44,986 nucleotides of DNA. Source: Macrostomum lignano (taxonomy: Eukaryota). Both the position numbers and the translations under genes were made by a program. The notes below the pieces were generated by a model. It saw only the letters and a list, made by a program, of their open reading frames with translations. It did not search any database and was not told where the DNA came from. Where the stretch lies: the NCBI GenBank assembly GCA_002269645.1, contig NIVC01004459.1, positions 1 through 44,986 on the forward strand. Reading direction: 5' to 3'. This document shows positions 1,805 to 11,611 of the stretch, piece after piece (within the stretch, counting starts at the first letter, position 1; every line of letters starts with the position of its first letter).

Positions 1805-1832
1805 CAAAGTTTTTTTTATTTTAGAGAAAAAA

Positions 1833-4800
1833 ATGCCAAAAGCTAATCCAGCAAGAGATTTAGTCAACAAATATTTTTCAAAAGGCGTCTCATTTCAAGA
1901 CAAAAGTAATTCACTAAGAGAAGCATGTAAACAAAAGTTTAACACCGACCCTGGTCACCTGGGAAGCTATGAAAAACAGTTGGAAATCATCAACAATTAG
2001 AATCCAACCAGTATGCGCCTATAAAAAATTCTGCAAAGGAACACCAAGAGAGGAGTCGCAACTTAGTTAACAAATACGAAACTCTCACTGGTGAAAAAGC
2101 AAAGTACCCACAAAATAAGCAGGAACAAGAGAAATTAGAGCAATTAATCCATTTAAAAGAGTCGGAGCTTGCCATTGAAGAGATTAATTTTGCACAGAGG
2201 AAGTTTACAGAACATTACATAGAGTACACAATCCCAATTAACGGCACCAACGGCACCACCGCAAACATCTACGACTATAAAGACAGCATCCAATCAGTTG
2301 TTGATCACACACTCAAAACACGCAAGACTTTTAAACTACAGATATCATTCAAATTGCGTTTTATATGCCTGCGAAACCCACTGAGCATCTCGAGTATTAC
2401 ATGACAACAAAGGCAAAGCCATTCACCCCAACAGACACACTGGATCCTTTCCTTCAAGATGTCAATAAGAAAATTGAAGCGTTTACATCCAGAGGTTCCG
2501 GATGGGTCGTGGGAGGGATTCAAAGAGCGACTGTCATGGTCATGAAATATGACCCACTTAAAGCCTCCTCTTATATAGAGCTCCCGCATAAGCTAGCCGT
2601 AAAAAAGCTTGCATAAATGTTAAAAATAAAGACAATTGCTGTGCTCTATGGGCAGTTCTTTCTGCACTTTTTAGTGTCCCTCACCACCCCGAAAGAACCT
2701 CAAATTATCAAAATTATTTCAACTACTATCTCATCGAATGCGAAAAGAAGGGAATCAGGTTTGACAAAGGAGGCTTGGCGATCTCTCAGATCCCAAAGCT
2801 GAAGAAGTGTTTAATAACAAAATTAGAATCACAGTCTTTGAGTGGAGTGAAAAAACGGAGAAAGTTCAACCGGTCAGATGTAGCAAAGACGTTTTAGATC
2901 CTGAGGGGAAAAGGCGGACTGAAGTGGATCTTCTAGTGATTGGTAATTTACTAGAGGAGGCTCACTATGTTTGGATTAAAGATCTTTCAAGACTCATTCA
3001 CAAGCAGTTGAATAATCATCACGAGGCTGTTGCCATCTGCCGCTTGTGCCTTAAGCATTACAGTGGACCTGAACGCTTTGAAAAACTAGCAGAGCATGAA
3101 TTATCATGCGAGGATCACCCGACAAACTGCTCTCTTCCTTCAGCTGAAGAGAAGTATCTCCGGTTTAAGAACTATCACAAGATGGAGAAGCTCCCATTTG
3201 TTGTATATGCTGATTTCGAATGCTCAATCGTGCCGGAAACTCAAAACACTCAAACTCAAAAATGTCCCCAATTCAGTAGCATATGCCTTTATTAATACAA
3301 AAGGACTTGTTGAGTATAATTATTTCTTTGGAGAGCAGTGTGTGGAGCAGTTTATTGCCAGAATGTTAGAGTTGCAAAAATGATTAGCACCCTTCAACCT
3401 GTTCCAATAAGTATGTCTGAGGAGGATGAAAGTAATTTCCTATCAGCAACTCATTGCCACATCTGCAGGAAACATTTAACTTGCACTAATATTAAAAACC
3501 CCACCGTTAGGGACCACTGCCACTTTACTGGGAAATTTAGAGGTGCAGCGCATAACACCTGTAATCTAAAGCTAAAATCGAACATTCATGATCTAACGAT
3601 ATTTTGTCACAACGCAAAGAACTATGACATGCATTTAATAGTTGAAAAAATCGGCATGATTCCAGACATACACCTTGATTGCATCGCAGAGAACAAGGAG
3701 AAGTTTAAGTGTGTTGATATTAAACAGGATAATTCGGGTAAAGGTAAAATAAGACTGAAGGATTCATATCAATTTCTAGCTGCCAGTCTAGACGAACTAA
3801 GCAAGAATCTAAAAGATGAACAATGTACATATACAAAGATGTTTGCAAGTAAAATTAACAACACTGATGAATCATTTAAACTCCTGAGAAAAAGGCTTCT
3901 ACCCCTATGAAAATATTACTGGGTATCACGTATTTGAAGAAGGTTTACCACCACAGGAGAAGTTCTTTTCAAAGCTAACAGACTCTGGAATCTCTGACAA
4001 AGACTATGAGCACGCGAAGCATGTCTATAGTTACTTTAATTGTCAAAACTTCTTCCAGTATCACCTGCTTTACCTCTTCACAGATGTGTTTCTGCTGGCT
4101 GATGTGTTTGAAACCTTCAGATACCTGGTACACAGCATATGGCCTCGATCCAGCACATTATGTGTCTCTGCCTGCCACTAGCTGGGAATCTTTGCTTAAA
4201 ATGAAATGGGATCAAGATCCAGATTGGTACATTGAACTTCTTACAGACATTGACATGTACAATTTTGTCGAATCGTCAAAGCGAGGGGGAATCTCAATTT
4301 GCGTTAACAGGTATGCAAAAGCAAACAATCCCTACATTGGATCTTACAATAAGGAGCAGCCCTCAAACTACATTACTTACTTGGACGCTAATAATCTCTA
4401 CGGGTGGGCGATGAGTCAAGATCTTCCAGTTAGAGATTTTCGATGGCTACCCTCATCAGAACTAAAGTGGGACTTTTCATTGGCTGCCATTTATGAGGTT
4501 GATGTTTACATTCCACCAGAGCTTCACGACTATTTCTCTGACTTTCCACCCTTCCCAGAGAACATCAAGTGCCCGAAAATAATCGAAACTCCCAATGATA
4601 ATAATGGAACTTGGCACCTGTCAGGAACAGAAAAAGAACATACAGAGAAACTAACACAGAATCTAAACAACAAGACACGTTACAAAATCCATTACAAACT
4701 GCTTCAGTATTTTATCTCACTTGGTTGCAGGGTCACCAAAGTTCACAGGGCTCTTACATTTACAGAGGAAGCGTGGATGAAACCCTACATTGATAAGAAC

Positions 4801-5664
4801 ACCCAGTTTAGGACCAAAGCAACCAACGACTTTGACAAGAACCTCTTTAAGTTGGCCAACAACTCTGTCTATGGCAAGACTCTTGAGAATGAGCGGAAAA
4901 GAACAAACCTGAAACTTGTTACCTCATCAGAGCCTGCTGTTATTCAAGCAAATATGTCAAAGCCAACATTCAAAGAACTCCATATCTTTAATAGCTACTT
5001 AGGTGTGATCATATTTTACAAAACCAAGGTGACGCTGCGCAAGCCGATCTATACAGGTGTCACTGTTCTCGACGAATCAAAACGTCTGATGTACCAATTC
5101 TTCTATGGCATGAAGCAGCAGTACAAGGATAAAATGAAACTCTTGTACACTGACACAGACAGTTTTATTATGGACATTCAAACAGAAGACATTTATCAGG
5201 ACATGCTGCAGCAAAAAGAGTTGTTTGACTTGTCTGAGTATGACGAATCTTGCAGGACGCTGAATGGTGATCAAGTGTTTGACGCCACTAACAAGAAAGT
5301 GATTGGGAAAATGAAGGACGAGATTGCTGGTGACATAATCACTGAATTCATTGGGTTGAGAGCAAAGTCCTATTTTATAAAATGTGAGTCGTCAGACCCA
5401 ATCAAAAAATCAAAGGGAATTCCGAAACGTGTGGTTAGGAAGGAAATTAATGAAGCTGAATACAGAGACGCCTTGAATTGCAACAAAAAGACATCACATG
5501 AGTTCTCAAAGCTACAATCTAAAAACCATATTATTCACACAATTCAGCAAAAGAAGATTGGACTGTCAGGTGCAGATAACAAGAGATTCATTTTTGATGA
5601 CAATATCAACAGTCTACCGTTCGGGCATTGGAGGTTAGGTTTAGGAGGTGGATATTGGGTTTAG
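1833..5664 (+). CDS. pPolB: Protein-primed family B DNA polymerase with N-terminal terminal-protein/vOTU-like region and endonuclease VII-like (HNH) insertion; several frameshifts before ~4125
   Basis: Polinton N-terminal signature FTSRGSGWVV..KYDPLKASSYIELP..INVKNKDNCCALWAVL; Exo I YADFECS, Exo II FCHNAKNYDMH, Exo III YLFTDVFLLADVFE; Pol motifs YLDANNLYGWAM, KLANNSVYGK, YTDTDS; CHIC...RDHCHFTGKFRGAAHNTCN. Confidence 0.96.
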
Positions 5665-10294: not shown

Positions 10295-10324
10295 TTCTTA
10301 TTTTATTTTATTTTTAGTTAAAAA

Positions 10325-11611
10325 ATGAACGACCCACTGACACCAGTTTTCTACAAAATTAACAAGCCTATTTTGAGTGGTGATAGCACAATCAAAGCGA
10401 CACAAGTTAGAGTTCCGAGTCACGAGAACCAGAATGAAACTAATCTTGGTCCTGGTCAAACACTGACATTTACATACAATGGATGTTCGTCTTTGGTTAG
10501 TGTGCACAGTCTTAAGAGCGGCTTCCATATGACATTTCAATTCAAGACAAAGGGTGGTGCGGATGCGGCTCGTGCTAACGTTGACAAGCATGATGCGGAT
10601 GTGGCTCTGATCAGCAACTTTTGGGCGTACATGTTCAAGGAGTTTAGTGTATCGAATGGGAGCACAGAGTTGGAGCGAATCGCCAACTTTGGAATTGTCT
10701 ATGACGCTCATTGTTTGATCGAGAATCCTGATTTTATTCAATTGGGAAGTGGTGCGGGTTTTATTGCAGACGAAAAAGAAGGAGATATCAATGACAGTGG
10801 TTATAAAAATAGGAAGAAGAGATACAACTATGCATTGCAAGGTGCAGATGATGCTGCTAAGAACCCGCAGTATCGGTCTGTTGATGTATTTGTACCATTG
10901 AGATTCATGAGTGGATTCTGTAATACATTTAATCGACTGACTAGTAACTTTAGCTACACATTTAGGATGACTAGAGATGATCGCAGTAGAGTGTTGTGGA
11001 CTGGGGCGGACCACACAAGGATGGAGGTGAAGCTAACCGGAATCGAGCTGTATTTGGAAGTCATTGAGCCAAAGACCGCACTAAAAGCGGATTATCTTAA
11101 GGCAATAGAGAAGGACATTGATGTTGCATACACGGCCTACATGTGTCGAGATGAGCGAAACGAAACTAGAACAAACATCTGCATTAAAGAGGGATCATGC
11201 AGCAATCCAAGGTATATTATTATTAACATGAGAAACCCAAATATCATTATACGCTACATGCATGGAGACGTGCGGTCCATTCAGCATGAAATCAGTGATA
11301 ATCTTTACCCTGCACTGCCACAAAATGGAGATTTCAGTCAGAACAAGATTAGCAAATTTTACAGCGAGTTGGTCGACTTGGCTGTGAAAGAGAACAATGG
11401 AATTGCTATCACTGCTCTTCAATATGGAACTCTATATCCGATGTTTGGCGCTGATGTGTCTGCCAGACAAATGCCTACTGATAACAGCCCTGTGAATATC
11501 GTGACTAACATTGAAAGGACTGCCGCAACACCCGTGAACCTGTACATTGTCTATGCATTTGAGAGGAAGGTGAAGCTTAACATGATCAACAATTCATCCA
11601 GTAAAGTTTAG
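10325..11611 (+). CDS. MCP: Double-jelly-roll major capsid protein (PY/hexon-like), intact 428 aa
   Basis: GDSTIK, ALISNFWAYMFKEFSV..GSTELERIANFG, FVPLRFMSGFCNTFNRL..YTFRMTR match the Polinton MCP pattern; size and position next to the penton fit. Confidence 0.88.
   Translation: MNDPLTPVFYKINKPILSGDSTIKATQVRVPSHENQNETNLGPGQTLTFTYNGCSSLVSVHSLKSGFHMTFQFKTKGGADAARANVDKHDADVALISNFWAYMFKEFSVSNGSTELERIANFGIVYDAHCLIENPDFIQLGSGAGFIADEKEGDINDSGYKNRKKRYNYALQGADDAAKNPQYRSVDVFVPLRFMSGFCNTFNRLTSNFSYTFRMTRDDRSRVLWTGADHTRMEVKLTGIELYLEVIEPKTALKADYLKAIEKDIDVAYTAYMCRDERNETRTNICIKEGSCSNPRYIIINMRNPNIIIRYMHGDVRSIQHEISDNLYPALPQNGDFSQNKISKFYSELVDLAVKENNGIAITALQYGTLYPMFGADVSARQMPTDNSPVNIVTNIERTAATPVNLYIVYAFERKVKLNMINNSSSKV

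Follow-up and report, generated by a model that had tools for sequence, protein, structure and literature searches.

T-tract-TAG motifs before four core genes of a Polinton locus as candidate spliced-leader acceptors

How are the genes of a Polinton turned into separate mRNAs? To our knowledge, these elements encode neither an RNA polymerase nor a capping enzyme, and the expression of a dozen nearly spacerless Polinton genes has been largely unstudied. The question is raised by a 44,986-nucleotide stretch of DNA, contig NIVC01004459.1 (the window, numbered from its first letter), of which positions 1 to ~12.5 kb are one broken copy of a Polinton/Maverick (adintovirus). The initial annotation had reported a U-tract and an AG 6-8 nt before the ATG of four core viral genes, and had suggested that these genes might receive a spliced leader (SL) by trans-splicing, or an adenovirus-like common leader. 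All four motifs are present in the window, as listed here.

1810..1835, plus strand: candidate acceptor of the protein-primed DNA polymerase B (pPolB) gene; T8-A-T4, AG at 1823-24, 8 nt to ATG 1833; fits UUNYAG
6825..6861, minus strand: candidate acceptor of the hairpin open reading frame (ORF); T4-A-T17-CT, AG at 6837-36, 8 nt to ATG 6827; fits UUNYAG
8419..8447, minus strand: candidate acceptor of the packaging ATPase gene; T9-CATCAT, AG at 8429-28, 6 nt to ATG 8421; does not fit UUNYAG
10295..10327, plus strand: candidate acceptor of the major capsid protein (MCP) gene; 21-nt T-rich tract, AG at 10316-17, 7 nt to ATG 10325

We give a probability of about 0.5 to the reading that these four T-tract-TAG sites are unpaired 3' acceptors receiving a host spliced leader by trans-splicing. 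The motif itself is real and lineage-specific; the SL mechanism is plausible, though unproven.

Enrichment of acceptor-like motifs and the lack of minus-strand GT[AG]AG donors

We considered a start codon as having a candidate acceptor if an AG lies 0-12 nt before the ATG and at least 10 T occur in the preceding 15 nt, a rule that was set after the motifs had been seen. It holds for 4 of the 12 gene starts of the element versus 5 of the 474 ATGs in 1-12800, and when the 12 upstream windows were shuffled 10,000 times, four passing starts were never reached. The hairpin-ORF candidate occupies the entire 34-nt spacer behind the upstream stop codon, a branch-like YTRAY is located 24 nt upstream of the ATPase junction, and two to five ATGs are found in the 150 nt preceding each acceptor.

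As comparators we used 153 Polinton loci fetched via a pPolB alignment (23, plus 50, plus the best 80 of 444), which are distant (30-53% in pPolB), often short, and in some cases include host DNA. The acceptor rule is passed by 13 of their 835 ORFs, these being in 13 different loci with at most one per locus, versus 4 of 12 starts in this element (Fisher P 5e-5). When only ORFs with a T-tract are counted, an AG is present in 4/6 cases here versus 13/97 in the comparators (Fisher P 0.006). Gene by gene, the rule is passed in the comparators at 1/43 pPolB, 1/35 ATPase and 0/11 MCP starts versus 3/3 in this element, and at 0/13 minor capsid and 0/22 protease starts; the exact pattern is found in 0 of the 153 loci. 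Since the acceptor motif is rarely met in these 153 other loci, and never twice in one of them, the T-tract-AG feature is specific to this lineage and not a general trait of Polintons.

Genes are packed 16-34 nt apart on both strands. The earlier statement that the intergenic gaps leave almost no room for promoters applies to the spacers of 34, 24, 33 and 30 nt, the exception being pPolB, which starts ~280 nt after the mu-like ORF. The start codons of the minus-strand ORF at 10294 and of the plus-strand MCP gene diverge from points 30 nt apart (10292-10327), thus each transcript must either begin within the opposite gene or arise by processing of a longer RNA.

From 12032 down to 6838, the minus strand contains no GT[AG]AG at all, where 8.3 would be expected from base composition, so that no such donor precedes the ATPase site for 3.6 kb or the hairpin site for 5.2 kb. 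Donors on the sense strand of the genes number 4 versus 8.9 expected from codon shuffles, a depletion that is weak on its own; the ratio is the lowest among the 47 loci with enough coding DNA.

In Macrostomum lignano, 30% of genes are reported to be trans-spliced to a 35-nt leader ending in ATG, operons occur in which the commonest spacing is near 100 bp, and an acceptor without an upstream donor is described as the sole requirement for trans-splicing (PMC8629364). The leader is reported to be common to two other Macrostomum species (PMC10468722). The SL acceptor motif given for parasitic flatworms is UUNYAG (PMC12582326), and this consensus, although that of parasitic species, is fitted by three of the four viral sites.

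If the four sites are used in this way, host RNA polymerase II would produce long or overlapping precursors from few promoters, and the spliceosome would bind the U-tract and AG and, with no donor in cis, would join the 35-nt SL instead. Trans-splicing would remove upstream cistrons together with the 2-5 upstream AUGs per gene, and the product would be a capped single-gene mRNA in which 6-8 nt separate the leader from the viral AUG and its A-rich context. Expression of the genes that lack the AG would rely on starts of their own or on reinitiation. More tentatively, and with rather less than even odds, we suggest that a flatworm Polinton evolved one trans-splice acceptor for each of several core genes (polymerase, packaging ATPase, major capsid and hairpin ORF), the host SL cutting promoter-poor arrays on both strands into capped mRNAs. 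If true, this would clearly exemplify a multigene DNA virus that exploits SL trans-splicing, would predict a host-range limit for the element, and would tie it to stem cells, as 85% of the neoblast-enriched genes of M. lignano are reported to be trans-spliced (PMC8629364). If wrong, the locus would be a decayed Polinton of the usual kind, set apart by a T/A spacer motif specific to its lineage.

RNA evidence, counter-evidence and alternative explanations

Of the 21 rows of sequencing runs listed, 18 contain the stretch, and none is recorded as RNA. Assembled contigs of three runs that were guessed to be RNA, each from a different study, and of a fourth, unlabelled run were compared with 1-8460, a part that takes in the pPolB and ATPase sites; 6826-6868, with the hairpin site, was passed over as repetitive. 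Contigs of each examined run cover all 30 bins. A leader splice was not seen in the assembled contigs examined, which can show presence, not absence; assemblers also trim short branches that lead nowhere, and a 35-nt leader would form one. Junctions at 1825, 6835 and 8427 were not found among the 7 joints and 24 of 804 loose ends listed, nor were AG-altering substitutions found among the 40 of 153 substitution rows listed, and we weighed neither result either way. The contigs spanning two genes do not show a single transcript. The initial proposal is supported in part: the identity of the element, the enrichment of the motif over other Polintons and an SL-using host lineage are borne out, and the splice itself is not seen.

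A number of observations weigh against trans-splicing. No leader junction was observed in the contigs, and two contigs run unspliced over candidate sites with at least 31 letters on each side, namely, X1 record 3 (1262-1871) over the pPolB AG and X9 record 32 (8140-8460 and beyond) over the ATPase AG. Unspliced passage through the AGs, which the initial annotation had named as the sign against splicing, is thus seen at these two sites in contigs of guessed-RNA runs, though not in RNA shown to be mature; the bridging contigs may stem from DNA, from precursor RNA, or from other copies that are read through. The pPolB and MCP sites are not clearly unpaired, given the donors upstream of them, and seven weaker AG/GT sites are present on the minus strand between 12032 and 6838. 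The top trans-acceptor motif reported for M. lignano, [T/C]TNCAG (PMC8629364), is fitted by none of the four sites, all of which are TAG, whereas the host prefers CAG. The AUG of a joined flatworm leader would be in frame for the ATPase only and out of frame at the other three sites, where the frames that it opens would run for 12, 40 and 14 codons past the viral start. At MCP, the tract doubles as the opposite strand of the A-rich leader that precedes the divergent ORF at 10294, the two sharing the same 30 nt. Moreover, a T-tract with an A-run is found at six starts, two of which, those of the integrase (INT) and minor capsid genes, lack the AG, and six further starts have neither T-tract nor A-run. 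With tract and A-run held fixed, an AG in at least 4 of the 6 junctions has P 0.017 under the base frequencies of the element and P 0.076 by a pooled-letter shuffle. Accordingly, chance clearly does not account for the layout of T-tract and A-run, whereas the AG is only moderately non-random. Finally, the window was chosen out of a very large scan, the comparator loci were compared irrespective of host, and the placement of the host in or near Macrostomum, suggested by paralogues that are only 41-50% identical, does not prove the species.

The stronger of two alternatives, which we consider rather unlikely, is that no splicing takes place and that T-tract, A-run and ATG form a viral spacer motif in which the AG is incidental, its parts being a poly(dT:dA) promoter element, a U-rich 3'-end signal of the upstream gene and an A-rich start context. 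This explanation accounts better for the INT and minor capsid genes, as it covers all six starts with T-tract and A-run, including the two without AG: the INT start has a T-tract and A5, and the minor capsid start has T8, 7 nt and A6. The caveat attached to the initial annotation, that the AG may occur by chance and that most genes lack the pattern, stands for the same reason. The spacers of the minor capsid and ATPase genes are mirror images in layout (inverted pair I7), T-tracts precede 97 of the 835 comparator ORFs, and the modest AG-only probabilities (0.017-0.076), the all-TAG and mostly out-of-frame pattern and the contigs crossing two sites unspliced all agree with it. However, only 13 of these 97 comparator ORFs have an AG, no locus of the 153 has two, the exact pattern is in none of them, and the donor-free minus strand is left unexplained. 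Nor does a structural version gain from folding, as hairpins of T-run and A-run are no more stable than those of shuffled sequences (z -0.1 to -1.7 at all six sites).

Cis-splicing, through short 5' introns or an adenovirus-like leader, possibly one in terminal inverted repeats serving both strands, fits best at the pPolB and MCP sites, which have consensus donors 120-350 nt upstream (1476, 1622 and 1639 before pPolB, that at 1476 reading GCT/GTAAGT within the mu-like ORF, and one possible donor at 10196 before MCP); flatworm acceptors are said to serve cis- and trans-splicing alike (PMC12582326), and the terminal repeats, lying outside the window, leave room for a leader there, none common to the genes having been found within it. 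We nevertheless regard it as improbable for the four sites as a whole, since the ATPase and hairpin sites have no GT[AG]AG for 3.6 and 5.2 kb upstream and single contigs cross the pPolB and ATPase sites unspliced.

Gene content of the element and the neighboring host genes

To judge from Pfam and tblastn matches, the element is a Polinton, as initially annotated, with all core genes present (integrase, pPolB and capsid module). On the plus strand, its left part encodes the integrase, a mu-like core protein, pPolB and the adenain protease; next come six ORFs on the minus strand, the A32 ATPase among them, and the right part, again on the plus strand, encodes the major and minor capsid proteins. 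The features of the element and the host gene considered below are as follows.

212..1250, plus strand: retroviral-type integrase (INT), gene in pieces; tblastn of comparator ORFs, E 2e-61
1266..1550, plus strand: adenovirus mu/protein X-like core protein ORF; Pfam Adeno_PX, E 1.9e-07
1833..5664, plus strand: pPolB, broken by several frameshifts
5698..6098, plus strand: adenain-type cysteine protease; Pfam Peptidase_C5, E 8e-05
6098..6827, minus strand: hairpin ORF, so named in the initial annotation, with an approximate lower end and a predicted start; in this copy the frame is open from 6827 to 6537 only
6862..7605, minus strand: coiled-coil ORF, 247 aa; no acceptor
7650..8421, minus strand: A32-type packaging ATPase, tail in another frame; Pfam Pox_A32, E 1.8e-06
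8464..8642, no strand: tandem repeat of 21 nt that precedes the ATPase acceptor and gives repeated upstream ATGs on the minus strand
8726..10294, minus strand: ORFs 10294-9356, 9359-9081 and 9064-8726, all three in one direction, with an overlap or a 16-nt gap between neighbors
10325..11611, plus strand: MCP (double jelly-roll major capsid); Pfam DJR-like, E 6.9e-05
11612..12499, plus strand: minor capsid gene, ATG 11636
32400..32892, plus strand: host WSC-domain gene, ATG 32428, AG 32423-24

In this copy the reading frame is broken in the integrase, pPolB, the hairpin ORF and the ATPase tail. A comparator integrase has a Pfam rve domain. The start of pPolB at 1833 was placed from the overall length (~1277 codons), and the protein is 41-46% identical to those of animal elements, including one named Corynactis coral adintovirus PolB. 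The MCP start position is matched in all 12 full-length relatives (15 aligned). The hairpin ORF has no Pfam match and no Atlas match, and the protease gene has no T-tract acceptor, with an AATAAA inside its 33-nt spacer. On the minus strand the 21-nt repeat (8464-8642) reads as a 7-residue repeat, one frame of which stops 26 nt before the ATPase ATG, and it may be the broken tail of an upstream ORF rather than non-coding DNA. A C-rich CAG lies 5 nt before ATG 9359 (9359-9375, minus strand), within the last codons of the upstream ORF; it fails the T-tract rule, and is a possible fifth acceptor.

We found no inverted match between 1-1300 and 12300-18000 that would indicate terminal repeats, and the left end of the element probably lies before the window. 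No close relative with DNA was found for MCP or ATPase in viral contigs, for the pPolB piece, or in metagenomes searched with the MCP alignment; nine MCP protein relatives, 42-77% identical, come without flanking DNA, and an exact look-up of 10 element proteins returned none. Among the comparators, the related loci L029 5167-5868 and L070 3218-3838 (minus) each have a single site, a T-tract-TAG 6 nt before the integrase ATG, and L032 likewise has one, a T-tract-CAG 3 nt before an intact pPolB. Fifty Polinton-type pPolB loci (L024-L073) are located in contigs of bacterial and archaeal metagenome-assembled genomes; these contigs are most likely eukaryotic or viral, binned with the prokaryotic ones.

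The element ends beside the first of several WSC-domain genes or fragments, which are clustered on both strands (12940-13450, 18685-20380, 32428-33150 and 37030-37280) with long minisatellites between them; Pfam WSC identifies three of these, and the piece at 12.9-13.4 kb was judged by eye. A similar acceptor had been claimed for the host gene at 32428. An AG does exist at 32423-24, 3 nt before the ATG, but the match is weaker than at the viral sites (GCTTAG, no long T-run). Ten of the 150 listed hits of the exon at 32428 were looked up; seven of them were chosen because they cover nearly the whole exon, six of these seven being named Macrostomum lignano (identity 41-50%), and among the other three of the ten are a fungus and an annelid. 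A Macrostomum flatworm is thus the likely host; a word-index search with the host gene returned nothing. An F5/8 type C galactose-binding domain is encoded by host gene pieces at 26209-27325 (minus strand), and a decayed LTR retrotransposon remnant with DUF5641, which we take to be BEL/Pao-like, lies at 39600-41690.

Relation to known systems

In the adenovirus major late tripartite leader, one leader feeds several acceptors just before start codons, in cis, from one promoter and on one strand. Unlike it, the Polinton described here has candidate acceptors on both strands, with no donor found for the minus-strand pair. With other animal Polintons/Mavericks it shares the integrase, pPolB, adenain protease, A32 ATPase, and double jelly-roll major and minor capsid genes, but T-tract-AG before several genes was not seen in the 153 other loci.

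The spliced leader and operons of Macrostomum and other flatworms, as described in PMC8629364, PMC12582326 and PMC10468722, have in common with this element tightly packed co-directional genes and a pyrimidine-rich acceptor, here a candidate one, just before the start codon. The targets here are viral, however, with spacers of 24-34 nt versus a mode of ~100 bp and TAG versus [T/C]TNCAG (PMC8629364).

Mobile-element RNA that receives a host spliced leader, as proposed here, has been reported before. RNA of Cer1 in C. elegans carries SL1, although unspliced RNA that reads across the SL1 site is made as well (PMC3315495), and ~30% of Hydra transposable element (TE) Iso-Seq reads have an SL, all TE classes pooled (PMC12220107). 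Cer1, an LTR retrotransposon, has a single SL site (PMC3315495), whereas candidate acceptors are found here at several genes, and neither case, as far as the available text of these sources goes, is a multigene DNA virus with an acceptor per gene on both strands. The eri-6/7 locus of C. elegans likewise combines a Polinton with trans-splicing; there, two host pre-mRNAs are joined via pairing of Polinton repeats, and the part of the report available describes neither a spliced leader nor viral genes (10.1101/2024.01.15.575659). Oikopleura Tor elements were dropped as an SL precedent, with 0 occurrences of 'trans-splic' in the available text (PMC4402516). Nothing on SL appears in the accessible parts of the nematode and Oxyrrhis Polinton papers, an egovirus preprint has no bearing on the question, and our searches of open-access papers, subscription journals being outside this scope, yielded no paper on SL-spliced Polinton genes.

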